From an uncultured Rickettsiales bacterium (lineage in GTDB: Bacteria > Pseudomonadota > Alphaproteobacteria > Rickettsiales > SXRF01): a stretch of 64,000 bases of DNA. The stretch spans positions 8,361-72,360 of the forward strand of contig CAZNPA010000006.1 of the NCBI GenBank assembly GCA_964575095.1. The letters are read 5' to 3'. Under the pieces are notes generated by a model. The model saw only the letters and a list, made by a program, of their open reading frames with translations. It was not told the DNA's origin and searched no databases. The position numbers and the translations under genes were made by a program. Each line of letters opens with the position of its first letter. Within the stretch, counting starts at the first letter, position 1. This document shows positions 10,313 through 61,515 of this stretch, piece by piece.

Positions 10313-10458
10313 AGCTCCCCCTTGAGGGGGGAGCGGGCGAGGCGTTAGCCGAGCCGTGGGGGTGAAGGTTTGCAAACAACTTTGTTGTTTGCAATACCCC
10401 TCACGCTTCGAGCAGCGCCTACGGCTTGCTCTCAGCCGCTCTCCCCCAAGGGGAGAGC
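10313..10458. repeat. Nested-palindrome element, copy 1 (intergenic, after glnA)
   Basis: Terminal hairpins GCTCCCCCTTGAGGGGGGAGC and CTCTCCCCCAAGGGGAGAG flank an inner stem GCCGTGGGGGTGA...CCCCTCACGC. Same architecture as the copies at 16045, 44223, 45574, 56813 and 57987. Confidence 0.85.
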
Positions 10459-10465
10459 AATAAAT

Positions 10466-10496
10466 AAAAAAGGGAGCCACCCGGCTCCCTTTTTTG
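10466..10496. terminator. Bidirectional intrinsic terminator (glnA and convergent orphan operon)
   Basis: AAAAAA-GGGAGCC-ACCC-GGCTCCC-TTTTTT: a 7-bp GC stem flanked by an A-run and a T-run. Confidence 0.75.
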
Positions 10497-12620: not shown

Positions 12621-15168
<2,548 letters not shown>

Positions 15169-15197: not shown

Positions 15198-16334
15198 ATG
15201 GCAAAGAACAAAAAACACTACGCTTTCCACCAGCGGCTTGCCCGCTGGTATGAAGCGAACGGCCGCAAGACATTGCCGTGGCGCACGACGCGCGACCCTT
15301 ACGCCATCTATGTCAGCGAAATCATGCTGCAGCAGACGCAGGTCAAGACCGTGCAGGAGCGCTATTATTTCCAATTCCTGAAGCGTTTCCCGACGTTAGA
15401 AGCTCTGGCGGCGGCAAAACGTCAGGATGTGCTCAAAGCCTGGCAGGGGCTGGGGTATTATAACCGCGCCGTGAATTTGCATGAAGCGGCGAAGCAGATA
15501 ACCGGGATTCGGGATTGGGGATTAGGGATTGGGGAAAGGCAGAAGAGGAATATTCTTCAAACCCGAAGCCCGAACCCCGAATCCTTAATCCCGACTTTAA
15601 TGTCCCTGCCCGGTATCGGCCGCAATACCGCCCATGCCGTGGCCGCGTTTGCCTACCACACGCCGGTGGCGGTGATGGAAGCCAACGTCAAGCGCGTGCT
15701 GTCGCGGATATTTGCGCTAGAAAACCCAACCGCGGATGCATTGTGGGAACATGCGACGGCGCTGCTCGATACCAAGAACCCGTTCGATTACAATCAGGCG
15801 ATGATGGATATCGGCGCGATGGTTTGCACCAAGCGCGCGCCAAGATGCAAAGAGTGCCCGGCGAATGCAATCTGTGCGGGCACGGCATCGCCTGAATCTT
15901 ATCCGGCGGCCAAGATCAAAAAAGCAACGCCGGTGCGAAAGAAGTATATTTTCCTGCTGCGCAATAACGCGGGAGAATATTTCGCCGAGCCGCGGAAGGG
16001 GAAATTCTTGAACGGCATGTATGGCTTTGTTGAAAAAAATATCTGCTCCCCCCTTGAGGGGGAGCGGGCGAGGACAAGCGATAGCGATGTTCGAGCCGTG
16101 GGGGGTAAGGTTTGCGCTTCGCGCAACACCCCTCTCCCTAACCATCTCCCTCAAGGGGAGAGGGAATATTTAGGCGCCATCCGTCAGCAATATTCGCATT
16201 TTACGCTGGAGGCGGAGGTGTATCTTCAAAAAGCGCAAGGCAGCGGCAAGGATTGGCACTCCTTTTCAAAGCTAAAAAAGTTTCCATTCTCTATGGCAGA
16301 ATTAAAAATCTTGAAGTTACTGGAAGCGGCATGA
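15198..16334 (+). CDS. mutY: A/G-specific adenine DNA glycosylase carrying two in-frame palindromic insertions
   Basis: Contains LPWRTTRDPYAIYVSEIMLQQTQV, the HhH motif LPGIGRNTAHAV, the FeS cluster motif CTKRAPRCKECPANAIC and a C-terminal NUDIX-like domain. Confidence 0.9.
   Translation: MAKNKKHYAFHQRLARWYEANGRKTLPWRTTRDPYAIYVSEIMLQQTQVKTVQERYYFQFLKRFPTLEALAAAKRQDVLKAWQGLGYYNRAVNLHEAAKQITGIRDWGLGIGERQKRNILQTRSPNPESLIPTLMSLPGIGRNTAHAVAAFAYHTPVAVMEANVKRVLSRIFALENPTADALWEHATALLDTKNPFDYNQAMMDIGAMVCTKRAPRCKECPANAICAGTASPESYPAAKIKKATPVRKKYIFLLRNNAGEYFAEPRKGKFLNGMYGFVEKNICSPLEGERARTSDSDVRAVGGKVCASRNTPLPNHLPQGEREYLGAIRQQYSHFTLEAEVYLQKAQGSGKDWHSFSKLKKFPFSMAELKILKLLEAA
15502..15594. repeat. Imperfect palindrome with GGGATTN heptad periodicity, inside mutY
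   Basis: CCGGGATTCGGGATTGGGGATTAGGGATTGGGG ... CCCGAAGCCCGAACCCCGAATCCTTAATCCCGA. Translated in-frame it gives GIRDWGLGIGERQKRNILQTRSPNPESL. Confidence 0.75.
16045..16163. repeat. Nested-palindrome element, copy 2 (in-frame inside mutY)
   Basis: GCTCCCCCCTTGAGGGGGAGCGGGCGAG ... GAGCCGTGGGGGGTAAGG ... CTCCCTCAAGGGGAGAG. Read in-frame it gives SPLEGERARTSDSDVRAVGGKVCASRNTPLPNHLPQGER. Confidence 0.85.
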
Positions 16335-43525: not shown

Positions 43526-44218
43526 ATGGTGTACCATGTCATCGCGATGGACAACATAGCGAAGCATTACGAGCCCAGCCCGGGCATCGTAACGCCGGTG
43601 CTGAAATCCATTGACCTCACCATCGAGCCCGGCGAATTCGTGGCGATCATGGGGCCAAGCGGCTCCGGCAAAAGCACGCTGATGAACCTGCTCGGCACGC
43701 TCGACCGGCCGACACACGGTGTATATTTCTTAGACGGCGAGGACACAAAAAATCTTGATGACGAAGCGCTGGCTAAAATCCGCAACCGCGCCATCGGTTT
43801 CATTTTTCAGGGATTCAACCTGCTGCCGCGACGCACGGTGGTCGACAACATCGCCCTGCCCCTCTTTTACGGCGGCGAGAGCAAGGAAGAACGCATCCGC
43901 CGCGCCGAGCATTATCTCAACGTCGTCGGCCTCAGCTCGCACCGCGATTATTACCCGACGCAGCTTTCCGGCGGCCAGCAGCAGCGCATCGCCATCGCGC
44001 GCGCGCTGTGCGGCGAACCGAAACTGCTGCTCGCCGACGAACCGACCGGTAATCTGGACAGCGTCACCGGCAAGGAGATCATGGAACTTTTCGTCGCGCT
44101 GAATAAAGAAGGCATTACCATCGTGCTGGTCACGCATGACATGGACATCGCGAAATACGCAAAGCGGCTGGTGCAACTCAAGGACGGCGAGATTATTTAT
44201 GACGGACCGACCTACTGA
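43526..44218 (+). CDS. macB: MacB/LolD-type ABC ATP-binding protein
   Basis: Contains [38 protein letters not shown] and [12 protein letters not shown]. Confidence 0.92.
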
Positions 44219-44222
44219 TTAT

Positions 44223-44330
44223 AGCTCCCCCTTGAGGGGGGAGCAGCTGAGCGCAAGCGTTAGCGCCGCGCGAAGCGTGGGGGTGTTACCCCTCACGGCT
44301 CGCTCTCGCCCGCTCTCCCCCAAGGGGAGA
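44223..44330. repeat. Nested-palindrome element, copy 3 (between macB ATPase and permease ORFs)
   Basis: AGCTCCCCCTTGAGGGGGGAGC ... GCGTGGGGGTGTTACCCCTCACGGC ... CTCTCCCCCAAGGGGAGA. Confidence 0.85.
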
Positions 44331-44338
44331 ACCAAATT

Positions 44339-45568
44339 ATGATTATTGGATTGCTCCGCGAAGCCTGGCTCTCGATCGGCGCGCACCCGCTGCGCACGTT
44401 TCTGGCCATGCTCGGCATCGTCATCGGTGTGGCGTCGGTGGTGCTGATGCTGGCGATCGGCGCCGGATCACAGCGCGCGGTCGAGGAATCGATCGAAAAG
44501 CTGGGCACCAACCTCCTCATCGTCACCCCGGGCAACTTCAGCAACAAGGGCGTGGTGACCATCAATGCCAACAGCCTGACGCCGCAATACGTCGATGCCA
44601 TCGCGCAGCTGCCGTCGGTCGTCGCCGCCGCCGCGACCACGTCGGGCAGCAGCCTGCAGATCACGACCGGCAAGACCAACTGGAATACGCGCGTCACCGG
44701 CACCAACCCTTCTTATTTTTCTATCCGCAATTGGGATTTCGCCGAGGGCGAGAGCTTCACCGCCGACGACGTTGCCGGCAGCCGCCGCGTGGCGGTGATT
44801 GGCTCAACGGTGGCCGATAAGCTGTTTCCGGAAGGCGATGCTTTCGGCCAGACCGTGCGCCTGAACAACACCTCGTTTCTGATCGTCGGCATACTGGCGC
44901 CCAAAGGCCAGGATTTCTCCGGCCGCGACCAGGACGACAGCGTGTTCGTCCCCTTCACCACCGCCGAGAAAAAATTATTCGGGAAAGACAACGTTATCGG
45001 CTCGATGGTGCAGTCCATCTATGTGCAGGCGGCGTCGAAGGAAGACATCGAGCCGGCGACGGAGGAGATCACCGACTATATCCGCCAGCGCCATCGCCTG
45101 CGCGAAACGGACGAGAACGATTTCACCGTCCGCAACATGGCGTCGATCACGCAGGTGGCCAGCGACACGTCGCAGGCGCTGTCGATGCTCCTGGGCGCCA
45201 TCGCCTCGATCTCGCTCATCGTCGGCGGCATCGGCATCATGAACATCATGCTGGTCAACGTCACCGAGCGCACGCGCGAAATCGGCATCCGTAAAGCCAT
45301 CGGCGCCAGCCAGCGGCAGATATTGCTGCAGTTCCTGTTCGAGTCGATGCTGATCGCCGCCGGCGGCAGCCTGTTCGGGTTGCTGGCCGGCATCGGCGGC
45401 GGCATGGGCGTTAAGCACTGGCTGGCTATCCCGGTCGAAAGCACGTTGTGGCCGGTGCTGCTTTCGATGGCGGTCGCCATCGTCGTCGGCGTGGCCAGCG
45501 GCATCTACCCCGCGCACAAAGCCGCCAATCTCGAGCCCATTGAGGCGCTGCGCGCCGTGGGCGGATAA
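44339..45568 (+). CDS. macB: MacB-type ABC permease (MacB periplasmic core + FtsX domains)
   Basis: 409 aa with LREAWLSIGAHPLRTFLAMLGIVIGVASVV, TERTREIGIRKAIGA and four TM helices. Confidence 0.9.
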   Translation: MIIGLLREAWLSIGAHPLRTFLAMLGIVIGVASVVLMLAIGAGSQRAVEESIEKLGTNLLIVTPGNFSNKGVVTINANSLTPQYVDAIAQLPSVVAAAATTSGSSLQITTGKTNWNTRVTGTNPSYFSIRNWDFAEGESFTADDVAGSRRVAVIGSTVADKLFPEGDAFGQTVRLNNTSFLIVGILAPKGQDFSGRDQDDSVFVPFTTAEKKLFGKDNVIGSMVQSIYVQAASKEDIEPATEEITDYIRQRHRLRETDENDFTVRNMASITQVASDTSQALSMLLGAIASISLIVGGIGIMNIMLVNVTERTREIGIRKAIGASQRQILLQFLFESMLIAAGGSLFGLLAGIGGGMGVKHWLAIPVESTLWPVLLSMAVAIVVGVASGIYPAHKAANLEPIEALRAVGG

Positions 45569-45573
45569 AATTG

Positions 45574-45732
45574 GCTCCCCCTTGAGGGGGGAGCGGGCGA
45601 AAGCAAGCATTGGCGAAGCTTGAGCCGTGGGGGTGTCTCATCGCATAAATAGCCGGGATTTATCACCCCCACCGGATCGTCCGCCTTCGTATAACTCAGG
45701 CATACTCTCCGACTCCCCCCTCAAGGGGGAGT
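45574..45732. repeat. Nested-palindrome element, copy 4 (after permease gene)
   Basis: GCTCCCCCTTGAGGGGGGAGCGGGCGA ... GAGCCGTGGGGGTG ... CACCCCCACCGG ... GACTCCCCCCTCAAGGGGGAGT. Confidence 0.8.
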
Positions 45733-46022
45733 TAAAGCAAATCGTCACAATCAATTCATAAACCTGTCATCAAACTGTCATATTGCCTTGCTATAGTGGG
45801 AATCAGATAGGCGGGCATGGGAAAAATTACCACGTCACACCTCAGGAAGAAAGTGGCTGAAAGATGGCCTGCCATCCGAAGCCTCTTGCGAAGGATGGTT
45901 AAAATTGTCACAAATGATTCACACAATTTTAACTAATAATTAACTAAAATACTGTTAAAATTGAATCAGGTTAGAGATTACTAGTTGATATAAAACGATT
46001 TTTTAAACAAAAGGAGAAAGTT

Positions 46023-46298
46023 ATGAAAACTAATACATTAAAGAAAACCACCCTCCTCGCCGCCGTAGCGGTGATGGGTATGGCAGCGATGCCGGTGGCG
46101 GATGCAAGTGCTGCAATCCAAGCCATCGCAAGTACTAATATCAAGCAGTTCTGTAAGAATCTTGGTGACGGAATTGCAGGTGATTTTGGCGCGGCAGGAA
46201 CCAATCATAGTGGTGGCGGCGGCGGCACTATCACCTTAGTAAACGGTGTCTGGACCTTTACTCCGACTCCCGGACCGCATCCTTGCCCGTTCAAATAA
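46023..46298 (+). CDS. Small secreted protein (about 60-aa mature part, 2 Cys, Gly5 tract)
   Basis: AAGGAGAAAG SD and a Sec signal MKTNTLKKTTLLAAVAVMGMAAMPVADASA. AT-rich context. No recognised family. Confidence 0.6.
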   Translation: MKTNTLKKTTLLAAVAVMGMAAMPVADASAAIQAIASTNIKQFCKNLGDGIAGDFGAAGTNHSGGGGGTITLVNGVWTFTPTPGPHPCPFK

Positions 46299-46329
46299 AG
46301 AAATTGAAAAACTTGGAAAGGTATTTTTT

Positions 46330-46593
46330 ATGAATAAAATTGGAAAACATAGTGTAGGTCGCTATAAAAGAGCTTTTTTGGCTGCTGTTGCTGTCATGGG
46401 AATGTCTCTTATACCTTTAACTGATGGGCATGCAGCGAGAATCTATGTATCAAATCCAAATTTCTTGGATTTTTGTCGCGTCGGTTATAATGCGATTGTG
46501 GAGTGCGCAACCCATATAAACCCCGCGGCGGGAGGCACATGTTCTTGGGGGTGGAATGAGAAAGAGGGTTATTGGATAATGCTGTGCTATTAA
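46330..46593 (+). CDS. Small secreted protein (about 52-aa mature part, 4 Cys, Trp-rich)
   Basis: Its signal peptide shares LAAVAVMGM with the previous ORF. Start chosen at MNKIGKH. Followed by an intrinsic terminator. Confidence 0.55.
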   Translation: MNKIGKHSVGRYKRAFLAAVAVMGMSLIPLTDGHAARIYVSNPNFLDFCRVGYNAIVECATHINPAAGGTCSWGWNEKEGYWIMLCY

Positions 46594-46615
46594 GTTTTAT
46601 TAAATAAACCTCCAA

Positions 46616-46641
46616 CCCCCGCCTATTAGCGGGGGTTTTTT
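46616..46641 (+). terminator. Intrinsic terminator after the small-peptide genes
   Basis: CCCCCGC-CTATTA-GCGGGGG-TTTTTT. Confidence 0.8.
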
Positions 46642-46653
46642 AACCAATCGCTA

Positions 46654-47721
46654 TCAGGGAAATGAAGAAAATCTTTCTTCCGAACGAGTGATTTTCTGTA
46701 CTGATCCAAGCCTACGAAAATAAACACGTACCTTCTTTACTGGAATTTCCACCAGAAATACGATGGGGGTCGCTACCACTAATGTAAAAGCAAGAGCCGC
46801 AAAAAATAATTCGTGTCCCTGTTTTTGTTCTATCTGCAAAATATATTTTGCCAATGCCCCTACGGGCCAATGAATTAAAAACATTGGGTAGGCAATATCG
46901 GCACAGAATTGCTCGATCTTCGACATCGCCTTAGCTTTATTACACTCGTAAATGCGCATCACCGTCAAGGCAAAGAACACTACCGAAAAATGCACGATGG
47001 GTGCTTGCCATTCAGGGTGCCGCCTAACAGTGTCAAGCATATTGGGCACATACACAACAACATTAGCCAAACACAATAAAAATAATGTACCGAAAGGAAA
47101 ATAATTTTTCCATGTATGACGATAATGATAAGCGACGCTGCCAAGAAAAAAAGCAGGCGCGGTACCATAAATAGTGTAATAAAACTTATAAAATGTAGCT
47201 CCCTGCAAATAAAGTATTGCTGTCATGATTATTGAAATGACAAGACCAGCTAAACTTAACCGCCGACTGTAGCCTGTCAATAATCCAATGGTGAGGTAAT
47301 AAACGATTTCTGTGCTTAAGCTCCATGCTGTCGGAAGCAAAGCGAGTTTTGGCACTTTTGATGCAAATGAACTTAAGCCGAGAATGGTAAACTGTGGCAA
47401 CCATATTTGCCAAGTAGATGGCATAACCATTGATGGCCAAAGTTGTTTTGTTGTTTCAGGAATCCATTCAATAATCAGAACGCAAATGAGCAAGCACACC
47501 CAATAGGTTGGATATACGCGTACAAAACGATTGATAAGAAAATACGCTTTTCCACGGGCACTATTCTCGTACACTTCGCACATCATACGAGTGATCAAAA
47601 AACCGGAAAGCGTAAATAAACCAATAACCGCTGTATAATGCTGCCAGAAACTTCTGATCCCCGTGAAATGGCCTTGTATTACCGCCACGACGAGAAAAAA
47701 ACGTAAATAACCGAGTCCCAT
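46654..47721 (-). CDS. Acyltransferase family 3 (OafA/YrhL-like) membrane protein
   Basis: 355 aa, about 10 TM helices, with an N-terminal LRFFLVVAVIQGHF segment typical of acyltransferase_3. AT-rich. Confidence 0.65.
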   Translation of the reverse strand: MGLGYLRFFLVVAVIQGHFTGIRSFWQHYTAVIGLFTLSGFLITRMMCEVYENSARGKAYFLINRFVRVYPTYWVCLLICVLIIEWIPETTKQLWPSMVMPSTWQIWLPQFTILGLSSFASKVPKLALLPTAWSLSTEIVYYLTIGLLTGYSRRLSLAGLVISIIMTAILYLQGATFYKFYYTIYGTAPAFFLGSVAYHYRHTWKNYFPFGTLFLLCLANVVVYVPNMLDTVRRHPEWQAPIVHFSVVFFALTVMRIYECNKAKAMSKIEQFCADIAYPMFLIHWPVGALAKYILQIEQKQGHELFFAALAFTLVVATPIVFLVEIPVKKVRVYFRRLGSVQKITRSEERFSSFP

Positions 47722-47752
47722 TTTCTAAACATGCGAGAAACGGATAGCGCTG

Positions 47753-49183
47753 TCAAGCTCGGGGCTTGCCGCTCCGGAAATGCGATACCCGCCGCATCGC
47801 ATCCTCCAGCAGCATGGCAAAGAAGATAAGGTAAAAAGGTTCGGTGCCCCAGCGCATTCTTTCCTGTTCGCCTTTATTGAAAGCGCAAGAGGCAACAAAC
47901 ATCGCCGCAGCAACAAACACGGTTATCATAATGAACGGCCGGCGTTCCCTCGCATACCCGCGCGGCAACCATGCCAGCAAAAACACCAGCAACGGGATCG
48001 CCGCATATAACATGATGCTCCCCCTGCCCATCCAGATTTTCACCGTGCGCGGCAAGTCCCGGTATTCGGTGTCAAAAGCGCGCAACTTGCGCAGCGAGAA
48101 CCGGCAACACACATGCGCGATGGAAGGATACGCCGCCTTATCCATCATTTTACCGAATATTTTCTGTGCGTATGACCACGGATAATGACGCATCACGGTG
48201 AGTGAATCCGCCATATCCTGTTTGCCGCTTTCGATCAGCGCCTGGTAATTAAAATTGTTGCGCCCGTCCGGCTTGAAGCGCCCAAGCGACGGGTGGCCGT
48301 AATCCGGGCTTTGTTTCCCGACCTGCGTCCACTCTTCGCGCACGCGCATGGCTTTATCAAAATTAAAAATAACAGGAAAATAGGCCGATACTTCGCCTTG
48401 TGCCTGTAATATTTTGATGTCTGAAGGCGGCGCTGCCGCCACCGCTACCCCGGCAAGATTGGCGCCCATCCACGATGTCGCACCCAGAAAACCGTAAAGC
48501 GCCAAGTTTTTAAGGTAGATTATCGCTATGGGAGACAGTGCAGCCACCATGGCGGTGGTATGCCTTATGTTCCATGAGCGCCGATAAAACATCCATAACA
48601 CGCCTCCCATTCCCATAAAAAGTGTCAGATGCCAATGCGGACGCAGAAGCCCAAGCAGGCAGCAGGAAATAAATATTCCCACCAAGGTGCCTGACGTGAT
48701 GCGCGAATCCCGCTGCAGTCTGGCCAGATAGTACGCCATCATGCAGCATAGTGAGAATTCAAGATGAGTCGTATAGGCCCAGTTCATGTAAAGATTGAAT
48801 GTGGGAAACAAGCATAGCCATACACAAACGAATAGGCGTAAACCCAACCGCACCCCGATCAGGCGCAAGGCCGCATTCAAACTGACGACCGCCGCCAGGC
48901 CGACCCCGAAATATATCCACTCCAATATCAAACGATAATTTTCCGGCGACGCTTTAAAGACGACGCCTATCAGCAGATTCATCAGCGGCGGCTGGGAATG
49001 CTGATAAAAAAGAGAGGAGAACAGATCGGTCGTCAGCCATTGCGGGCTCAAATATTGCCAGAAAGTGAACACCGGCATGGCGGTAAACCGGGAATCTATC
49101 CCATATTTATACGCAAGCTGTGAACAAAGGTAGAGCGCCACCAACCATATATTTTCGCTATGCCGTCTGTACCACGCCTGCAT
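47753..49183 (-). CDS. Large polytopic membrane protein, possible GT-C-fold glycosyltransferase (ArnT/PMT-like)
   Basis: 476 aa with many N-terminal TM helices, a roughly 130-aa soluble loop, then two or three C-terminal TM helices. The family call rests on topology only. Confidence 0.35.
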   Translation of the reverse strand: MQAWYRRHSENIWLVALYLCSQLAYKYGIDSRFTAMPVFTFWQYLSPQWLTTDLFSSLFYQHSQPPLMNLLIGVVFKASPENYRLILEWIYFGVGLAAVVSLNAALRLIGVRLGLRLFVCVWLCLFPTFNLYMNWAYTTHLEFSLCCMMAYYLARLQRDSRITSGTLVGIFISCCLLGLLRPHWHLTLFMGMGGVLWMFYRRSWNIRHTTAMVAALSPIAIIYLKNLALYGFLGATSWMGANLAGVAVAAAPPSDIKILQAQGEVSAYFPVIFNFDKAMRVREEWTQVGKQSPDYGHPSLGRFKPDGRNNFNYQALIESGKQDMADSLTVMRHYPWSYAQKIFGKMMDKAAYPSIAHVCCRFSLRKLRAFDTEYRDLPRTVKIWMGRGSIMLYAAIPLLVFLLAWLPRGYARERRPFIMITVFVAAAMFVASCAFNKGEQERMRWGTEPFYLIFFAMLLEDAMRRVSHFRSGKPRA

Positions 49184-49267: not shown

Positions 49268-49352
49268 GCCCAGGTGGCGGAATTGGTAGACGCACTAGCT
49301 TCAGGTGCTAGCGCCGCGAGGTGTAAGAGTTCGAGTCTCTTCCTGGGCACCA
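49268..49352 (+). tRNA. tRNA-Leu (anticodon CAG)
   Basis: GCCCAGGTGGCGGAATTGGTAGACGCACTAGCTTCAGGTGCTAGCGCCGCGAGGTGTAAGAGTTCGAGTCTCTTCCTGGGCACCA. It has a long variable arm and an encoded CCA. Confidence 0.9.
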
Positions 49353-51883: not shown

Positions 51884-52917
51884 TGAACGCCCAATCGCGA
51901 ATAACCGCCAAAGCCAAAGCCATAGGCTTTGATGCGGTAGGTTTCACTGCGCCGGAAATTTCCGCCGATGCGCAAGCGGGTTTGCAGGAATTCCTCATCA
52001 ACGACCATCACGGCGATATGGCGTGGATGATGGAGAAGGCCGACCGCCGCGGCGATCCGAAGGCGCTGTGGCCGGAGACGAAATCGGTCATCGTCGTCGG
52101 CCATAATTACGGGCCGGATTTCGATCCGATGGAAAAACTGGCAGCGCGGAGTACGGGGAACATTTCCTGCTACGCGCTGAACGAAGATTATCACGACGTC
52201 ATCAAGAAAAAACTGAAAGAGCTGGCGCGCTGGGTGGCAGAAGAATTTGCCTGCGAGGTGAAAGTGTTTGTGGATACAGCGCCGGTAATGGAAAAGACGC
52301 TCGCGGCGGAGGCTGGCCTTGGTTGGCAGGGAAAACACACCTGTTTGGTTTCGAAAGAATTCGGCAGCTGGCTTTTTCTAGGCAGTATATTCACAACCCT
52401 GCCGCTGACTGCTGCCGCACCGGAAACGGATCACTGCGGCACCTGCCGGAAATGCCTCGACATCTGCCCGACCAACGCCTTTACCGCTGAAAGAAAGCTC
52501 GATGCGCGCAAATGCATTTCCTATCTCACCATCGAGCACAAGGGACAAATTCCGCTCGAATTCAGGAAGGCCATCGGCAACCGCATCTATGGCTGCGACG
52601 ATTGTCTGGCCGTGTGCCCGTGGAATAAATTTGCGCAAATTTCTGGCGAGATTTCTTACCATTCGCGTCGGGAATTGCAAAGCCCGCTGCTGCAAGAATT
52701 AGCGCAACTCGACGACACCGCTTTCCGCGCCTTGTTCAGGAAATCGCCGGTCAAGCGCATCGGCCGTGATCGCTTCGTACGCAACGTGCTCATCGCCATC
52801 GGCAACAGCGGTAACGCCTCTTTGCAAGAAACCATTGCACCGCTTGTACGCGATGCTTCGCCGCTGGTGGCCGAGATGGCGACATGGGCGCTGGAGGAGT
52901 TAGTGGCGAGTGGTTAG
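51883..52917 (+). CDS. queG: Epoxyqueuosine reductase
   Basis: Contains CGTCRKCLDICPTNA and GCDDCLAVCPWNKF ferredoxin motifs plus C-terminal HEAT-like repeats. The last 6 codons and the stop lie inside a palindrome. Confidence 0.92.
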   Translation: MNAQSRITAKAKAIGFDAVGFTAPEISADAQAGLQEFLINDHHGDMAWMMEKADRRGDPKALWPETKSVIVVGHNYGPDFDPMEKLAARSTGNISCYALNEDYHDVIKKKLKELARWVAEEFACEVKVFVDTAPVMEKTLAAEAGLGWQGKHTCLVSKEFGSWLFLGSIFTTLPLTAAAPETDHCGTCRKCLDICPTNAFTAERKLDARKCISYLTIEHKGQIPLEFRKAIGNRIYGCDDCLAVCPWNKFAQISGEISYHSRRELQSPLLQELAQLDDTAFRALFRKSPVKRIGRDRFVRNVLIAIGNSGNASLQETIAPLVRDASPLVAEMATWALEELVASG

Positions 52918-52983
52918 TGGTGAGTGACGAGGAAGTATGCTATCTTTCTGACTCATCACTAACCACTCGCCACTATCCACTAA
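52899..52983. repeat. Palindrome with GTGGNGA periodicity bridging queG and grxC
   Basis: GTTAGTGGCGAGTGGTTAGTGGTGAGTGACG ... CTGACTCATCACTAACCACTCGCCACTATCCACTAA. It ends 1 nt before the grxC ATG. Confidence 0.75.
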
Positions 52984-55377: not shown

Positions 55378-56793
55378 TTACATATGTATCACGCGGCCGT
55401 AGGCGTCTAACACCGATTCATGCATCATTTCCGATAGAGTCGGGTGCGGGAAGACGGTGTGCATCAGTTCGCCTTCGGTCAGCTCGCCGGTTTTAGCGAT
55501 GGCGTAGCCCTGGATCATTTCGGTGACTTCGGCGCCGATCATATGCGCGCCCAAAAGCTCGCCGGTCTTGGCGTCGAAGATGGTTTTCACCAAGCCTTCC
55601 GGTTCGCCGAGCGCGATGGCCTTGCCGTTGCCGATGAAGGAGAAGCGGCCGACCTTGACGTTGAGTCCCTTCTCTTTCGCCGCTTTTTCGGTAAGGCCGA
55701 CGCTGGCGATCTGCGGCCAGCAATAGGTGCAGCCGGGGATGTTGGTCGTTTTGATGGGATGCACGCCCTTGACGCCGGCAATTTTCTCGACGCAGACGAC
55801 GCCCTCGTGGGAGGCCTTGTGCGCAAGCCATGGTGCGCCGGTCAAATCGCCGATGGCATAAACGCCCGGTTCGGCGGTGGCGCCATAGCCGTCGGTGACG
55901 ACGTGCGTCTTCTCGACTTTGACCTTGGTGCCTTCCAGCCCCAGATTCTCGACATTGCCGACGATGCCGATCGCGAGAATCACTCTATCGACCGTAACAT
56001 CGCTCGACTTGCCGCCCGCTTCCAGCGTTACCGTTACATTATCTTTGCCGCGCTTGAGCGCTTTTACTGTTGTACCGACATGAATCTTCATGCCCTGCTT
56101 CTCGAAGGCCTTATGCGCGAATTTGGAAATCTCCTCGTCCTCGACGGGCAGGATGCGATCCATGACTTCGACCACCGTCACTTCAGCGCCCAGCGTGCGG
56201 TAGAAGCTGGCGAACTCGATGCCGATGGCGCCTGAGCCTACGACCAATAAGGATTTCGGCATGACGTCGGGCACCATCGCCTCGCGGTAGGTCCACACCA
56301 GCTTGTTCATCACCAGCGGGCCGTCGGGCTCCAGCCCCGGCAGCGTACGCGCCCGCGCGCCGGTCGCCAGAATAATATGCTTGGCCGTCAGCTCGGAGAT
56401 TTTCTTGCCGTCTTTCTCGACGCTGACTTTTCCCTTGCCCGCCAGCTTGCCGTGGCCGTCGATGACGGTGATTTTGTTCTTCTTCATGAGGCCGGAAACG
56501 CCTTTGGACAATTGCCCCGCTACCGTGCGTGAGCGCTGCACGATTTTTGACAAATCGAATTTTATATCTTTTGCGCTCAAGCCAAATTTATCGGCGTTCT
56601 GCATCAGGTGATAAATCTCGGAGGTGCGCAGCAGCGCCTTGGTCGGGATGCAGCCCCAGTTCAAGCAAATGCCGCCCATGTGCGCACCCTCGACGACGGC
56701 CGTTTTCATGCCCAGCTGCGCGGCGCGTATCGCCGCCACATAGCCGCCCGGCCCGCCGCCGATGATAACGATGTCAAAGTTCTGGTCAGTCAT
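55378..56793 (-). CDS. lpdA: Dihydrolipoyl dehydrogenase (E3)
   Basis: 471 aa with IIGGGPGGYVAAIRAAQLG, the redox centre GGICLNWGCIPTK and the HPTLSE motif. Confidence 0.96.
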   Translation of the reverse strand: MTDQNFDIVIIGGGPGGYVAAIRAAQLGMKTAVVEGAHMGGICLNWGCIPTKALLRTSEIYHLMQNADKFGLSAKDIKFDLSKIVQRSRTVAGQLSKGVSGLMKKNKITVIDGHGKLAGKGKVSVEKDGKKISELTAKHIILATGARARTLPGLEPDGPLVMNKLVWTYREAMVPDVMPKSLLVVGSGAIGIEFASFYRTLGAEVTVVEVMDRILPVEDEEISKFAHKAFEKQGMKIHVGTTVKALKRGKDNVTVTLEAGGKSSDVTVDRVILAIGIVGNVENLGLEGTKVKVEKTHVVTDGYGATAEPGVYAIGDLTGAPWLAHKASHEGVVCVEKIAGVKGVHPIKTTNIPGCTYCWPQIASVGLTEKAAKEKGLNVKVGRFSFIGNGKAIALGEPEGLVKTIFDAKTGELLGAHMIGAEVTEMIQGYAIAKTGELTEGELMHTVFPHPTLSEMMHESVLDAYGRVIHM

Positions 56794-56812
56794 TAGTAAT
56801 ATTTCTCCTTTT

Positions 56813-56963
56813 AATTCCCCTCTCCCTTTGAAGGGAGAGGGCAGCGAGACTTGGACAATCGAAGATTGTCCTTAGTCGAGCAGGGTGAGGGTTGCACTCT
56901 CTCATTGGCGATGAAGCACAACCCTCTCCCCTGCCCCTCTCCCTTCAAAGGGAGAGGGGAATT
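56813..56963. repeat. Nested-palindrome element, copy 5 (variant, upstream of lpdA)
   Basis: AATTCCCCTCTCCCTTTGAAGGGAGAGGG ... CAGGGTGAGGGTTGC ... CCCTCTCCCTTCAAAGGGAGAGGGGAATT. Confidence 0.8.
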
Positions 56964-57008
56964 TTAAGAACAGCCGATGATGACGATATCGAAATTAGTG
57001 TCGGTCAT
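56964..57008 (-). pseudogene. Orphaned duplicate of the lpdA 5' end (14 codons + stop)
   Basis: Minus strand AAGGAAAGAAAA-ATGACCGACACTAATTTCGATATCGTCATCATCGGCTGTTCTTAA encodes MTDTNFDIVIIGCS*. The real start is ATGACTGACCAGAACTTTGACATCGTTATCATCGGCGGC, encoding MTDQNFDIVIIGG. Confidence 0.7.
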
Positions 57009-57104: not shown

Positions 57105-58406
57105 CTAAATCAACAACAAACTCGGATTCTCGACGTAATGCTTGAAGGCCGCGAGGAACTCCGCGCCGACGGCGCCGTCCACCACGCGGTGGTCGACGGA
57201 GAGCGTCACTTCCATGATATTGCGGATTTCCATTTTGCCGTGGCGCACCACTACTCTCTCACCGCCAGCGCCTACCGCCAAGATGCAGCCCTGCGGCGGG
57301 TTGACGATGGCGCCGAAATGCTTGATGCCGTACATGCCGAGATTCGAGATCGAGAACGTGCCGCCCTGGAATTCTTCCGGCATGAGTTTGTTGGCGCGGG
57401 CGCGCGCCGCCAGGTCTTTCATTTCGTTCGATACCTGTATCACCGTTTTCTGGTCGGCGTTCTTGACGATGGGCGTGATGAGGCCGCCGTCGATGGCAAC
57501 CGCCACCGAAATATCGACGTTGTTATATTGCAAAATCGCTTCGTCGCTCCACGACGCGTTGGCGGCGGGGATTTTCTTCAAAGCCAGCGCCGATGCTTTA
57601 ATAATAAAATCATTCACTGAAAGTTTATAGGCCGGTTTTTTGTCTTTCCCGGCACGCGCTTCGGCGTCGAAATTGATTTCCTTCCTGACGTCGAGCAGCC
57701 TATCCAATTCGCATTCAATGGTCAGGTAAAAATGCGGCACCTGCTGCTTCGATTCGGTCAAGCGCTTGGCGACGATTTTCCTTATATTGCTATTGGGAAT
57801 TTTGGTGAACTCGGTGGGATTCCTGCTCACCTGCCCGCGCCCTGTGCCGCCGGATGCCAGCGCCTTCAGCACGTCGTCTTTCACGATGCGCCCGTGCGGG
57901 CCGCTGCCCTGCACCATGCCAAGCTGCACGCCTTCGCTGGCGGCAACGCGCTTGGCGAGAGGGCTCGCGAAGATGCGCGAACTTACGCTCCCCCCTTGGG
58001 GGGGAGCAGCTGAGAGCAAGTGCTCTTGCGCGCCGCTCGAAGCGTGGGGGGTAGGCTTTGCAACTTTACCCCCCACGGCTTGACCTTCGCTTACGCTTGG
58101 TCTCGCCTGCTCCCCCCCAAGGGGGGAGCGGGGTTTATAACTCGCCAGCGCGCCCTTATCCTCACCCTCTTCGAGAAGCAGCGCGATGACCTCGTTGACC
58201 TTGACGTTCTGTGTTCCCGCCGGGACCATGATCTTGCCGATGGTGCCTTCATCGACCGCTTCGACTTCCATCGTCGCCTTGTCGGTCTCTATTTCGGCGA
58301 TGACCTTGCCGGACTTGATCTGGTCGCCCTCTTTGACATGCCACTTGGCAAGGTTGCCCTCGGTCATGGTCGGTGACAGCGCAGGCATCAGGATTTCAAT
58401 CGGCAT
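57105..58406 (-). CDS. pdhC: Pyruvate dehydrogenase E2 dihydrolipoamide acetyltransferase with an in-frame palindromic insertion in the linker
   Basis: Lipoyl domain (AEIETDKATMEVEA), PSBD (ASPLAKRVAASEGVQLGMVQGSGPHGRIVK) and catalytic domain (DHRVVDGA). Confidence 0.95.
   Translation of the reverse strand: MPIEILMPALSPTMTEGNLAKWHVKEGDQIKSGKVIAEIETDKATMEVEAVDEGTIGKIMVPAGTQNVKVNEVIALLLEEGEDKGALASYKPRSPLGGEQARPSVSEGQAVGGKVAKPTPHASSGAQEHLLSAAPPQGGSVSSRIFASPLAKRVAASEGVQLGMVQGSGPHGRIVKDDVLKALASGGTGRGQVSRNPTEFTKIPNSNIRKIVAKRLTESKQQVPHFYLTIECELDRLLDVRKEINFDAEARAGKDKKPAYKLSVNDFIIKASALALKKIPAANASWSDEAILQYNNVDISVAVAIDGGLITPIVKNADQKTVIQVSNEMKDLAARARANKLMPEEFQGGTFSISNLGMYGIKHFGAIVNPPQGCILAVGAGGERVVVRHGKMEIRNIMEVTLSVDHRVVDGAVGAEFLAAFKHYVENPSLLLI
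57987..58130. repeat. Nested-palindrome element, copy 6 (in-frame inside pdhC)
   Basis: GCTCCCCCCTTGGGGGGGAGC ... GCGTGGGGGGTAGGC ... CCCCCCACGGC ... GCTCCCCCCCAAGGGGGGAGC. On the coding strand it reads SPLGGEQARPSVSEGQAVGGKVAKPTPHASSGAQEHLLSAAPPQGGS. Confidence 0.85.
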
Positions 58407-58418
58407 CTATTCAGGCTC

Positions 58419-59396
58419 CTATTTGTAACAAACGCTTTTGACCGCATCGATGATGTGGCTTGCCTGCGGCAGCGCCAGCTTCTCGAGGTTAGCGGCGTAG
58501 GGCAGCGGCACGTCGAGCCCCGCCACGCGTGCGACCGGCGCGTCGAGGTAATCGAAGGCGTGCTCCATAATCTGCGAAGAAATTTCCGCGCCGATGCCCA
58601 TGGGCGCCCAGCCCTCTTCCACCGACACGCAGCGGTTGGTTTTCTTGACCGACTCGACGATGGTTTCAGTATCGAGCGGGCGCAGCGTGCGCAGGTTTAT
58701 CACTTCGGCGCTAATCCCTTCTTGCGCTAACTGTTCCGCTGCTTGCAACGCTTTACCGACCATGATCGAAAAGGCGACAATGGTGACGTCGGTGCCCTCG
58801 CGTTCGATATGCGCCTTGCCGATGGGCAAAATGAAATCGCTGTCGTCCGGCACGTCAAAACTTGTTCCGTACATGAGTTCGTTTTCGAGGAATACAATCG
58901 GATTCGGGTCGCGGATGGCGGCTTTCAATAATCCTTTTGCGTCCGCCGACGAATAGGGCGCGACGACTTTGAGGCCCGGCACGTGCGCATACCAGCTGCC
59001 GTAGCACTGCGAGTGCTGCGCCGCGACGCGCGACGCCGCGCCGTTGGGGCCGCGAAATACAATCGGGCAGCCGATCTGACCGCCGGACATGTAGCGCTGT
59101 TTGGCGCTGGTCACGATATGGTCGAGCGCCTGCATGGCGAAGTTCCAGGTCATGAATTCGACGATGGGCTTCAAGCCCATCATCGACGCGCCTACCCCTA
59201 AGCCGCAGAAACCATATTCCGTGATCGGCGTATCGACAACGCGCTTGGGCCCGAACTCCTGCAACAGCCCTTGCGTCACCTTGTACGCGCCCTGGTATTC
59301 GGCGACTTCCTCGCCCATGACGAAGACCTCGCCGTCGCGGCGCATCTCCTCGGCCATGGCGTCTCTTAGGGCGTCTCTTACGGTTAGTGTAGCCAC
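58419..59396 (-). CDS. pdhB: Pyruvate dehydrogenase E1 beta subunit
   Basis: 325 aa with [24 protein letters not shown] and PVVFLENE-like [11 protein letters not shown]. Confidence 0.95.
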
Positions 59397-59409: not shown

Positions 59410-59467
59410 CTTGTCACCCCTGCGAAAGCAGGGGTCTTAAGATTCCTGCTTACGCAGGAATGACAAG
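59410..59467. repeat. Composite two-hairpin cruciform of the 24-nt repeat family
   Basis: CTTGTCA-CCCCTGC-GAAA-GCAGGGG-TCTTAAGA-TTCCTGC-TTAC-GCAGGAA-TGACAAG, with perfect two-fold symmetry. Confidence 0.85.
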
Positions 59468-59472
59468 TAAAA

Positions 59473-59775
59473 TTACATCCAGTTATGTATATCTTCATAT
59501 AAATCTTTCCATTCCGGGTTCACTTTCTCGATCAATTCAATTTTCCAATCCCGTTTCCAACGCTTCAGGCATTTTTCTCTGTGGATGGCTTGGTCAATGT
59601 AATCAAATGCTTCTACATAAACCAACCGTTTAACGTGATATGTCTTACTGAATCCCTCTATCAATCCTTCTTTATGTTCTACGGCTCTTCTCGGTAAATC
59701 GTTAGTCACTCCAATATAAAGCACCCCGTATTTTTTACTTGCGATAATATAAACATAATATCTGTGTTTTCTCAT
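59473..59775 (-). CDS. GIY-YIG nuclease family protein (small URI-domain type)
   Basis: 100 aa with YYVYIIASKKYGVLYIGVTNDLPRRAVEH and REKCLKRWKR. AT-rich. Flanked by hairpin repeats on both sides. Confidence 0.85.
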   Translation of the reverse strand: MRKHRYYVYIIASKKYGVLYIGVTNDLPRRAVEHKEGLIEGFSKTYHVKRLVYVEAFDYIDQAIHREKCLKRWKRDWKIELIEKVNPEWKDLYEDIHNWM

Positions 59776-59783
59776 GGTTTTTT

Positions 59784-59807
59784 GTCATTCCTGCGAAAGC
59801 AGGAATC
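59784..59807. repeat. 24-nt hairpin repeat
   Basis: GTCATTCCTGCGAAAGCAGGAATC. Confidence 0.8.
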
Positions 59808-59822
59808 TAGTTTCTATCATAC

Positions 59823-60104
59823 TTATGGTAAGCACCTAATTACCCATGTATGTACCTGCCGGTAGGAACTATCGGGAAGCAAGGTGGTATGCTCAGATAT
59901 TTTCTTGAATCCATTATGACACCGTTCTAAAGCATCAGTACTCATCGCATTAAGCGCTATGTTTGGGTTATTATTTACCGTATTATCCGTAGCACTGATG
60001 GTGTAAGTATTATTGCTGGTCTTTTCACCAGTAACGATAGGGTCACACCCAGTGACAATGCCAGCCAATATCATTAGCAATGAGATTTTAGTAAAAATTT
60101 TCAT
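59823..60104 (-). CDS. Small lipoprotein, unknown function
   Basis: 93 aa with lipobox AGIVTGC and an Asn/Thr-rich mature part containing 2 Cys. AT-rich. Confidence 0.55.
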   Translation of the reverse strand: MKIFTKISLLMILAGIVTGCDPIVTGEKTSNNTYTISATDNTVNNNPNIALNAMSTDALERCHNGFKKISEHTTLLPDSSYRQVHTWVIRCLP

Positions 60105-60125
60105 GATGTTTCCGTTGTACTCGAT

Positions 60126-60455
60126 TTAGATGTTTAGCTCTAATGTTACTCTCGGATGTTCTCTATCTTTCGGTGCCCAATAATTTTTAACTTTGGCATC
60201 AATTTTTTCGCCAGCATCTAAACGCTTTGACAGGTTTTTAGCGGTACTGGCCTTAATAAAACCTATTTGTTTTCTGCCTATTCCAAGCAATCCAAAAAAT
60301 ACGGGAATGGCAAGATAAACCTCGATGGCATTCTCATCAAATTTATTATTCGGATTACGCTCAAGAAATACAGTCATTCCTTCACGGCAGTATCGCTTGA
60401 TAATTTCTGCCCGGTGCTCAAATCCAGTACCTGCAACAATAGCGCTTCGTGACAT
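60126..60455 (-). CDS. Stand-alone HIRAN-domain protein
   Basis: 109 aa. IVAGTGFEHRAEIIKRYCREGMTVFLERNPNNKFDENAIEVY...IGFIKASTAKNLSKRLDAG fits the HIRAN pattern (G..y......l..G..v.L.RePdN.yD.nAi.V....g..iGyi). Confidence 0.7.
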   Translation of the reverse strand: MSRSAIVAGTGFEHRAEIIKRYCREGMTVFLERNPNNKFDENAIEVYLAIPVFFGLLGIGRKQIGFIKASTAKNLSKRLDAGEKIDAKVKNYWAPKDREHPRVTLELNI

Positions 60456-60482
60456 TAAAAAATCTTTCTTTCTCTAAGTCTA

Positions 60483-60506
60483 GATCCCTGCTTTCGCAGG
60501 GATGAC
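60483..60506. repeat. 24-nt hairpin repeat, inverted orientation
   Basis: GATCCCTGCTTTCGCAGGGATGAC, the reverse complement of the GTCATCCCTGCGAAAGCAGGGATC consensus. It lies 4 nt from the pdhA stop. Confidence 0.8.
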
Positions 60507-60510
60507 AAAT

Positions 60511-61515
60511 TTAAATAGTCACATCCGTCCACAGCTCGGACTCCGGCGGTTCGGGAGATTGTTGCGCAAACTCCGCCGAGTCGTTGACGATGGTTTTGGT
60601 TTCCTTGTCGATGGCCTTGAAATCTTCCTCGCTGACCATGCCGTCTTTGATCAATTTATTTTTCAGGCTGTCGATGGGGTCGTGCTGGTCCTTGTATTTG
60701 TCGACCTCCTCCTTGCTGCGGTACTTCGCCGGGTCGGACATCGAGTGGCCGCGGTAGCGGTAGGTTTTCATCTCAAGCAGGATCGGGCCGTGACCGGCGC
60801 GGACATAGGCTACCGCTTCCTCGGCCGCCTGATGCACCGTCAACACGTCCATGCCGTCGACCTGCCTGCCGGGAATGCCGAAGCCTTCGCCGCGGCGGTA
60901 AAGCTCCGTCGTCGCCGAGCCGCGCTTGATCGAGGTACCCATGGCATATTCGTTGTTCTCGATGACGTAGATGATGGGGAGCTTCCATAGCGACGCCATG
61001 TTGAATGCTTCGTACACCTGTCCCTGGTTGGCGGCACCGTCGCCGAAATAGCAGACGCACAGGCGGCCGTTGCCGCGGTATTTGTGGGCGAAGGCGATGC
61101 CGGTGCCGAGCGGCACCTGCGCGCCGACGATACCGTGGCCGCCGTAGAAATGTTTTTCGCGCGAGAACATGTGCATCGAGCCGCTCTTGCCCTTAGCGAT
61201 GCCGCCGACGCGCCCCGTCAGCTCGGCCATAATTTCGTTGGGCGTCATGCCGCAGGCCAGCATGTGGCCGTGGTCGCGGTAGCCGCTGATGACGGCGTCG
61301 TCGGGCGTGAGGCAATCCTGGATGCCGACCACCACCGCTTCCTGCCCGATATAAAGATGGCAGAAGCCGCCGATCAGCCCCATGCCGTAAAGCTGCCCGG
61401 CCTTCTCCTCGAAGCGGCGGATCAGCAGCATGTCGCGGTAGAACTGCAGCAGTTTTTCTTTGGGCAGCGGCGCAGGGGTTGCGGCGGCAAGTTTTGGATT
61501 GAGGGTTTTAGACAT
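60511..61515 (-). CDS. pdhA: Pyruvate dehydrogenase E1 alpha subunit
   Basis: 334 aa with the TPP motif YFGDGAANQGQVYEAFNMA, plus YRYRGHSMSDP. Confidence 0.95.
   Translation of the reverse strand: MSKTLNPKLAAATPAPLPKEKLLQFYRDMLLIRRFEEKAGQLYGMGLIGGFCHLYIGQEAVVVGIQDCLTPDDAVISGYRDHGHMLACGMTPNEIMAELTGRVGGIAKGKSGSMHMFSREKHFYGGHGIVGAQVPLGTGIAFAHKYRGNGRLCVCYFGDGAANQGQVYEAFNMASLWKLPIIYVIENNEYAMGTSIKRGSATTELYRRGEGFGIPGRQVDGMDVLTVHQAAEEAVAYVRAGHGPILLEMKTYRYRGHSMSDPAKYRSKEEVDKYKDQHDPIDSLKNKLIKDGMVSEEDFKAIDKETKTIVNDSAEFAQQSPEPPESELWTDVTI

Follow-up and report, generated by a model that had tools for sequence, protein, structure and literature searches.

The window analysed here, a 64-kb stretch of DNA with a GC content of about 56%, contains six copies of a palindromic element, five of them canonical and one diverged. 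Its nearest protein relatives are found in MAGs labelled Alphaproteobacteria or 'Rickettsiales bacterium', at identities of 79% or less. The copies are 110-161 nt long, have terminal inverted repeats of 20-25 nt, and lie in AT-rich flanks. The copies and the two genes that host in-frame copies are as follows.

10313..10459, no strand assigned: copy 1 (147 nt), in the 3' untranslated region of glnA; folding z -8.5; profile E 1.8e-31
15198..16334, plus strand: mutY, A/G-specific adenine glycosylase, 378 aa; host of copy 2
16044..16164, plus strand: copy 2 (about 120 nt), in frame in mutY (ORF 15198-16334); profile E 4.8e-27
44223..44333, no strand assigned: copy 3 (about 110 nt, shortest loop); profile E 1.4e-23
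45573..45733, no strand assigned: copy 4 (161 nt), starting 5 nt past the stop of the MacB permease gene (45568); profile E 5.9e-30
56810..56966, no strand assigned: copy 5 (diverged subfamily); folding z -11.2; missed by the family profile
57105..58406, minus strand: PDH E2 component gene, 433 aa; host of copy 6
57986..58131, minus strand: copy 6 (146 nt), in frame in the PDH E2 gene; profile E 3.1e-34

Copy 1 is bounded by the stop of glnA (10307), a gene identified by its Gln-synt Pfam match, and by a bidirectional intrinsic terminator at 10466-10495. The neighbours of copy 3 are the gene for a MacB-type ABC ATPase (43526-44218) and the permease gene (44339-45568). Copy 5 is within the pdh operon, between the E2 gene (which ends at 57105) and lpdA (which starts at 56793 on the minus strand). 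All four intergenic copies are at transcribed positions, either inside operons or in a 3' untranslated region. Of the two coding copies, copy 2 supplies CSPLEGERARTSDSDVRAVGGKVCASRNTPLPNHLPQGERE to a loop in the NUDIX-like domain at the C-terminus of MutY, and copy 6 accounts for almost all of the linker that joins the lipoyl and E3-binding domains of E2 (RSPLGGEQARPS...AAPPQGGS). The copies survive in transcribed but tolerant places, i.e. 3' untranslated regions, gaps between cistrons, and in-frame protein loops or linkers.

The five canonical copies and the diverged copy are built alike: a self-complementary hairpin at the terminus (GCTCCCCC-TTGA-GGGGGAGC) is combined with an arm hairpin, a stem at the centre (GTGGGGGG/CCCCCCAC), and a loop that varies. 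Each copy can be described as a half-unit of about 65 nt that is duplicated in inverted orientation around a variable centre. The half-unit consists of the self-complementary terminal hairpin, the motif RGSYGAR, the arm hairpin, and the G-run GTGGGGGG, which pairs with the C-run CCCCCCAC of the other half. The shortest centre among the window copies is 5 nt (the copy at 44223), and others reach tens of nt. In the predicted fold, three hairpins are enclosed by an outer stem of about 20 bp. Element ends start with (A/T/C/G)GCTCCCCC, and there is no GTAG or CGTC tag beside the hairpin. Copy 5 has ends of the form CCCTCTCCC-TTTGAA-GGGAGAGGG, with 34-nt arms that are 94% complementary. Because it has the same layout but goes undetected by the family profile at E<1e-3, it is assigned to a diverged subfamily, and its tie to the family is a loose one.

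Both the ends and the fold are distinct from chance expectation. The terminal motif GCTCCCCCNTNNNGGGGGAGC, allowing 3 mismatches or fewer, has 17 matches in the window, all at element ends, against 0.18 expected by shuffling (0/100 shuffles reach 17), and an nhmmer profile made from five copies finds those five again with E-values of 1e-23 to 1e-34. All six copies fold well below their own shuffles (z -4.2 to -11.2). Across 18 copies from several genomes the fold is kept, with 95.8% of cells pairing versus 88.3% in shuffles (0/500 reach the observed level), and a slid-partner control gives pairing of only about 60%. Changes on both sides of the pair are seen at 12 pairs of this alignment, including 6/6 pairs of the main left-arm helix. 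The fold of the element is maintained by compensatory changes. In an Rfam scan of the window, two tRNAs were the sole matches above the gathering threshold; the element remains below it, its best match of 36 bits (137 needed) being long-hairpin noise. A tRNA-like reading of the cloverleaf fold was considered and rejected, since no tRNA or tmRNA model matches at the element.

Several claims of the initial annotation, made from sequence alone, bear on this layout. It had reported six copies, all of which are present to within 1-3 nt, in both intergenic and coding positions, which also holds (the copy at 16045 is read in frame with mutY, that at 57987 in frame with the E2 gene). Its assignment of all six to one family holds only in part, as five are canonical and the copy at 56813-56963 is missed by the profile. 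The list of shared motifs proves to be a composite: CTCGCCC is confined to two copies, those at 44223 and 57987, and some copies lack the CACGGC half of the proposed inner stem. The single long hairpin with a sub-hairpin at each end does not stand as described, the fold being an outer stem with three inner hairpins, and the orientation of the copy at 57987 is amended, as the minus strand reads best.

The proteins bearing copies 2 and 6 appear to accommodate them. An AlphaFold model of MutY has a mean pLDDT of 86.8, with low confidence only at residues 108-120 and 288-313, which correspond to two inserts. At residues 288-313, the insert made by copy 2, pLDDT is below 50 and the remaining fold is confident; the model thus predicts a disordered loop in a MutY whose fold is kept. 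mutY also holds a second palindromic insert at 15503-15597 that is unrelated to the family. In E2 with copy 6, all three domains are intact by Pfam, and the linkers of E2 homologues are unrelated in sequence and similar in length. The in-frame inserts are accordingly read as tolerated in the MutY loop and the E2 linker, on the assumption that the element is retained in both mRNA and protein.

Comparison with orthologous sites shows that the copies in MutY and in the MacB operon were inserted. Among 40 aligned MutY orthologues, most have a loop of 6-10 aa at the position where the window protein has a 40-aa insert. The same loop is filled by this family in two orthologues, P0122 (72% identical) and P0126 (60%), and is empty in orthologues both closer and more distant than these two. 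Three further orthologues (P0129, P0130, and P0133) carry other palindromic-looking inserts at the same place. Because two orthologues share the family and three bear different palindromic-looking inserts, the loop can be regarded as an insertion hot spot. For the MacB operon, comparison loci were taken from a metagenome scan with the permease, whose relatives there are 51% identical or less, and these loci serve for gap statistics and as element-free controls. The ATPase and permease genes are mostly spaced by -4 to +40 nt in the 65 related operons compared, versus 120 nt in the window, and the element is absent from 80/80 distant MacB loci. An all-against-all comparison of the retrieved loci gave no informative pair of filled and empty sites.

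It could be argued that there has been no insertion, i.e. that the shared peptide represents a linker or loop of low complexity that is ancestral, the likeness in DNA being due to convergence or gene conversion. In support, the E2 linker of homologues is about equally long, so that no net gain is visible there. Against this, the same 110-160 nt of DNA occurs in non-coding positions and in eight unrelated proteins, MutY orthologues lack the insert, and the palindromy at the nucleotide level has no protein rationale. This explanation is very nearly ruled out.

A second possibility is that the element is an RNA or DNA signal serving the host, e.g. an mRNA stabiliser, an attenuator or terminator, or a protein-binding site, and is kept by the need of the cell. 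The transcribed positions of all four intergenic copies and the conserved structure with its compensatory changes would be consistent with this. However, unrelated enzymes carry the same sequence in their coding regions, orthologues and related operons have empty sites, copy 1 has a distinct canonical terminator just beyond it, and no Rfam family matches. A host-serving role for the family is improbable, although secondary co-option of single copies as host signals remains possible.

Evidence for duplication of the target is weak at most. The longest repeat common to both flanks has a mean of 3.46 nt versus 3.17 nt in re-paired controls (P about 0.04), and flank repeats of 5 nt or more are found at 19% of copies versus 7% of re-paired controls. 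Individual flanking repeats include TGATTAT on either side of copy 3 at 44223, AATAT at 16045, and about 24 bp at locus L023 of a related genome, where the start of the host gene is duplicated on both sides of the unit. No target duplication of regular or fixed length is seen across copies.

The family extends well beyond the window. A distribution scan with an exact pattern, using one genome per species, gave 54 loci, nearly all in uncultured alphaproteobacterial MAGs, some of which are labelled Rickettsiales. About 75 copies are detectable within the 54 loci, and some dozen genomes of uncultured Alphaproteobacteria carry the family. In one MAG that is fragmented, copies are often at contig ends, as is typical of a repeat that breaks assemblies. 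In one genome of about 30% GC the outer modules are still GC-rich and the loop is a 270-nt AT-rich palindrome; it can be argued from this that the modules are under constraint. A nucleotide search of a plasmid collection with the element gave no match. Two lake MAGs among the matches are labelled 'Rickettsia typhi', and these labels look wrong. A contig labelled Desulfococcaceae (33% GC) contains a strong match and is possibly mis-binned. Two matches in Dehalococcoidia do not match the family profile and were set aside as probably due to chance.

In-frame copies recur in other enzymes. ORFs spanning copies revealed them in GlyS (twice), ThiE, and a SerB-like protein, and an exhaustive peptide-profile search, with 16 matches, gave three clear in-frame enzyme insertions, in UbiH-like, FolC-like, and ThiD proteins. 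Together with MutY and E2, at least eight unrelated enzymes bear in-frame copies. A word-indexed protein search with the peptide profile of the element returned two spurious mini-ORFs and nothing else. All coding copies are read in one frame, SPLEGE(Q/R/S)...VGG...TPH...APPQGGS, which is open end to end, and another frame is interrupted by the TGA of the TTGA loop. Either orientation gives nearly the same peptide because the ends are palindromic.

Further information about the origin of the element can be garnered from longer relatives that hold a gene between the two end modules. At three loci in three related genomes (L023, L035, and L038) a DUF559 coding sequence has a left module before it and a right module after it, and lies precisely between GTGGGGGG and CCCCCCAC. 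L038 has a degenerate right module, and L035 is on a 2.09-Mb MAG chromosome. The nuclease ORF crosses the left module in the SPLEGE frame, passes the right module as ...TPH...APPQGGS, and then stops. Its assignment rests on Pfam (DUF559, PF04480, E 6e-38) and on a match to PDB entry 3hrl (E 1.9e-21). The flanks of nuclease ORFs resemble the peptides of short elements, with identities of 73% over 22 aa (L067) and 49% over 53 aa (L057). The nucleases of L023, L035, and L038 are 42-47% identical to one another, so the association of modules and nuclease is old. At L035 the unit overlaps its neighbours via ATGA and TAATG, which indicates translational coupling.

The tandem array at L156 contains two full units beside two copies from which precisely 240 bp of the nuclease core is missing. 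The full and deleted copies show only a few differences outside the deletion, and still shorter forms are also included. At this locus, nuclease-less palindromes have arisen by internal deletion. The genome of L023 has short copies as well (L042, L045, and L065). By inference, the short copies in general are likely to be internal-deletion derivatives of a nuclease-carrying parent. Such a parent is not shown for the genome of the window, because tblastn finds no DUF559 gene in the 64 kb and the rest of the genome is unexamined. Outside L156 the reverse direction, in which a DUF559 gene landed in the loop of an existing palindrome, remains possible.

The genes around copies also bear on two explanations that invoke transposases. 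Pfam scans of about 69 ORFs found no transposase domain in the window. Among 108 ORFs within 1.2 kb of copies, DUF559 occurs twice, and no transposase recurs among the families listed (the 25 best represented of 131).

If the element were a classical MITE, it would have arisen by deletion from an insertion sequence that encodes a DDE transposase and has the same ends, and would be moved in trans by the transposase of that sequence. Its 20-25-nt terminal inverted repeats, small size, high number of copies, and AT-rich flanks agree with this, as do the direct repeats of 5-7 nt that flank a minority of copies. However, no insertion sequence or transposase with these ends is found in the window or in about 350 kb of related loci, no target duplication of fixed length is seen, and the longer forms found carry only the DUF559 nuclease or AT-rich palindromic filler. 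Of the characters expected of a MITE, terminal inverted repeats, small size, and lack of an own transposase are met, and a longer form encoding a transposase is not. We regard this origin as unlikely.

Alternatively, the terminal mini-hairpins could be REPs and the whole unit a REP doublet (REPIN), moved by a single-copy RAYT, an IS200/IS605-like Y1 transposase, encoded elsewhere. The family shares with REPINs a pair of inverted hairpins that builds a larger hairpin, an apparent lack of regular target duplication, a high copy number, and conservation based on structure. Locus L004 also contains units of 55-60 nt that stand alone and share the first hairpin. In contrast, REPs are extragenic by definition, carry a GTAG/CGTC tag (PMC3733652), and have a RAYT as partner, whereas the present family also lies in frame inside genes, lacks the tag beside its hairpin, and encloses DUF559 rather than a RAYT. 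No Y1 transposase was found in the window, nor among the families listed for the 108 ORFs near copies, the latter being a weak point since only 25 of 131 families were listed. The REPIN explanation is unlikely.

ERIC/IRU, Correia/NEMIS, and YPAL elements, bacterial MITEs that contain open reading frames, are likewise small and non-autonomous, have inverted ends, and fold stably as RNA, and they are sometimes co-transcribed with or fused to host ORFs (PMC2229807). They differ from the present family in being mostly AT-rich, with TA ends and target duplications, and in being linked, or presumed to be linked, to a transposase; in-frame insertion into conserved enzymes is rare among them.

The enclosed nuclease invites comparison with Vsr-like (EDxHD / PD-(D/E)XK) homing endonucleases, e.g. 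I-Bth0305I and the 'fractured gene' endonucleases (PMC3239194, PMC2677866). A proven homing endonuclease belongs to the same clade as the Vsr-like and DUF559 nucleases (PMC3424549), free-standing homing endonucleases of the Vsr-like type occur within protein genes (PMC2677866), and hairpins have been noted upstream of endonuclease ORFs (PMC2677866). Common to both systems are a small nuclease of the Vsr/DUF559 clade on a selfish insert (in the long relatives only, as the window copies are nuclease-less) and an insert within or between host coding regions that depends on host expression signals. The homing endonucleases, however, sit in introns or between the halves of an intein-split gene and have one specific target, whereas the nuclease of this family is enclosed by inverted hairpin modules and the family occupies many unrelated sites, mostly with nuclease-less copies.

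The reading that we prefer is that the copies are likely to be a non-autonomous, selfish 'protein-coding palindrome' that is functionally like the Rickettsia palindromic elements (RPEs) and derives from a nuclease-carrying form. The mechanism of its mobility is inferred, and recent movement is not shown. The long form would consist of two end modules around a DUF559 gene for a Vsr-like PD-(D/E)XK endonuclease, translated in one frame across both modules and often coupled to neighbouring host genes. Internal deletion of the nuclease core would then yield the short copies. One frame would be open end to end because, under this inferred origin, the nuclease gene was read through the modules in that frame. 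As to spread, it may be speculated that the nuclease acts in trans to nick or cut the folded ends or target sites, and that repair or copying then installs the element at new sites without regular target duplication. A PD-(D/E)XK nuclease alone is incapable of strand transfer, and for this reason the chemistry of insertion is not explained by the nuclease by itself.

The features of RPEs used for comparison are from earlier descriptions (PMC2229807, PMC10969869, PMC1166351). RPE-1 and related families were reportedly described by Ogata et al. in 2000 and 2002, and the protein-coding palindromic repeats of Wolbachia by Ogata et al. in 2005. Likeness to RPEs includes a length of 105-150 nt, a long stem-loop with inverted ends, many dispersed copies, and positions both between genes and in frame in conserved housekeeping proteins, with a recurrent peptide at tolerated surface positions. 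No transposase is known for either, and target duplication is not clear. The present family differs in its host, an uncultured alphaproteobacterium of about 56% GC that is neither Rickettsia nor Wolbachia; in its GC-rich sequence with C-run/G-run hairpins, each end being itself a hairpin; in its centre, where the cargo loop varies from 5 to about 330 nt; and in its longer relatives, which bear a DUF559 endonuclease gene, none being reported for RPEs in the literature searched. Size and stem-loop, intergenic together with in-frame copies, and tolerated positions all meet the description of an RPE, and only the host genus fails it. Homology in sequence to RPE families is nevertheless unlikely, an inference that rests on the GC-rich sequence with its runs of C and G.

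These results settle further points of the initial annotation. Its statement that no transposase is present in the window holds, and its preference for an RPE/MITE-like over a REP-like family is supported by the repeat family, the empty sites, the in-frame copies, and the absence of a GTAG/CGTC tag. The RPE-like reading itself is amended to that of a new GC-rich family, as membership in the Rickettsia RPE families cannot be demonstrated. It had attributed the variable loop to decay, which is only part of the matter, because the loops of related genomes house a DUF559 endonuclease gene. It had also suggested a search of other genomes with an HMM and a comparison with empty sites, and would have been refuted by copies confined to the six or by an ancestral origin of the shared sequence. 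The search, run on related genomes, finds that the conserved ends recur in about 75 copies, and the MutY and MacB comparisons indicate insertion.

In-frame palindromic elements in essential genes have been treated as near-unique to Rickettsia, with Wolbachia as a second case. RPE-like behaviour is now seen in a different, GC-rich, uncultured alphaproteobacterial lineage and in a family of unrelated-looking sequence, so the phenomenon is wider than thought. The mobilising enzyme and the target duplication of RPEs are still listed as unknown in reviews (PMC2229807, PMC10969869). The longer members of the present family hold an endonuclease gene at the position and in the frame that the short copies have lost, which provides a testable candidate for origin and mobility. 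What is described here is a new GC-rich family showing a known, RPE-type behaviour, and the link to the nuclease is the part most worth pursuing. In practical terms, such repeats interrupt MAG assemblies, give rise to spurious small ORFs, and make annotated enzymes longer.

Nuclease genes bounded by hairpins are also found elsewhere. Six DUF559 genes from the plasmid collection were inspected, and three of the six are flanked by inverted C-run/G-run hairpins 370-450 bp apart. These are in a cultured Sphingomonas, inside the pntA operon (hairpins of 27 nt, 93% complementary), in Azospirillum (24 nt, 100% complementary), and in the cyanobacterium Pseudanabaena (35 nt, 97% complementary). A fourth of the six, in Sinorhizobium, adjoins a complete short palindrome.

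A bolder reading may be drawn from this, in which short protein-coding palindromes are nuclease-less derivatives of a class of compact mobile units of about 430-530 bp, each a DUF559 gene between inverted C-run/G-run hairpin modules, translated through them and expressed via host operons or ORFs. We lean slightly against it on present evidence. No such class of compact unit was seen in the literature searched, which also gave no sign of a link between DUF559 and palindromic repeats, as judged mostly from titles. If the bolder reading were true, REP-, RPE-, and MITE-like palindromes would have a general source in mini-genes that are bounded by hairpins and whose spread is driven by a nuclease, and RPE-type elements would gain a testable origin and a mobilising enzyme. 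A parallel is seen in the window, where a different 24-nt hairpin family brackets a GIY-YIG nuclease ORF and a HIRAN ORF between pdhA and pdhB, in the pdh operon.

Within the pdh operon small cargo ORFs are bracketed by copies of a 24-nt hairpin family (GTCATYCCNGCGNAAGCNGGRATC), for which 7 matches were found against 0.03 expected. The members and their cargo, by window position, are as follows.

59413-60509, minus strand: hairpin-bracketed region of the pdh operon, between pdhA (60511-61515) and pdhB (58419-59396)
59473-59775: GIY-YIG nuclease ORF, enclosed by arms 59440-59466 and 59782-59808 (96% complementary)
60126-60455: HIRAN-domain ORF, enclosed by arms 59781-59810 and 60480-60509 (93% complementary)
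59823-60104: small ORF, within the same arm pair as the HIRAN-domain ORF
39781, 57024 and 57082: solo hairpins of the family

This layout of hairpins and cargo is the same as that of the DUF559 units, which are bounded by hairpin inverted repeats. Loci from other genomes and contigs bear on both the hairpin-flanked genes and the element family itself.

L159, Sphingomonas parapaucimobilis plasmid: hairpin-flanked DUF559 gene
L160, Azospirillum lipoferum 4B: the same
L161, Pseudanabaena sp. ABRG5-3: the same
L156 3049-5250, ENA ERZ26051043 contig_38 (41% GC): tandem array of the window-element family
L004 2220-6880, IMG/VR contig IMGVR_UViG_3300032167_001425: five stand-alone 55-60 nt units of the form GCTCCCCCCTTGAGGGGGAGC-TGTCAGCCGAAGGCTGAC-TGAGGGGG

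In the first three, inverted C-run/G-run hairpins of 24-35 nt, 93-100% complementary, flank genes annotated as DUF559 or 'endonuclease domain-containing'. The Sphingomonas gene is located between pntAA and pntAB, its stop lying 1 nt ahead of the next start codon. The L156 array comprises two full DUF559 units, two copies from which exactly the same internal 240 bp are deleted, and also shorter forms retaining the left module only; units are spaced by a repeated spacer of ~55 nt, within which the ORF start lies. The L004 units resemble one half-unit of the window element, sharing its first hairpin, which is followed by an arm hairpin and G-run. Two lake MAGs titled 'Rickettsia typhi' (contigs CAMCSJ01... 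and CAMDCJ01..., GC ~30-34%) both carry a version of ~430 bp with an AT-rich, palindromic interior, and many of their contigs terminate within it. The species label on these two MAGs is very likely wrong.

A palindromic element unrelated to the window element lies in frame within mutY at 15503-15597. One arm carries GGGATT-type heptamers and the other their complement, and the encoded peptide reads GIRDWGLGIGE...SPNPESLIP. The insert is absent from most MutY orthologues and present in four (P0122, P0124, P0127 and P0128); AlphaFold confidence is low at the region it encodes. Separately, the E2 linker of several homologues is filled by peptides resembling this product, e.g. GLGIGDSG...SPIPNPQS and DSGFRIQDSG...ESRILNPES.

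Other stretches of note in the window include a palindrome of GTTAGTG-type heptamers at 52897-52983, with 52-nt arms (73% complementary), which runs across the queG stop (52917) and up to the glutaredoxin gene start (52984). ThiC (12621-14567) is 648 aa long, and its Pfam core (residues 163-610) places 448 residues on a 420-position profile, which suggests that the protein may contain one further in-frame insert. GC content falls to 0.44 at 46000-48000 vs ~0.56 elsewhere; this stretch, which could be an acquired island, holds an Acyl_transf_3 ORF (46654-47721) and ORFs without a Pfam match, and a tRNA gene lies nearby at 49268-49349.
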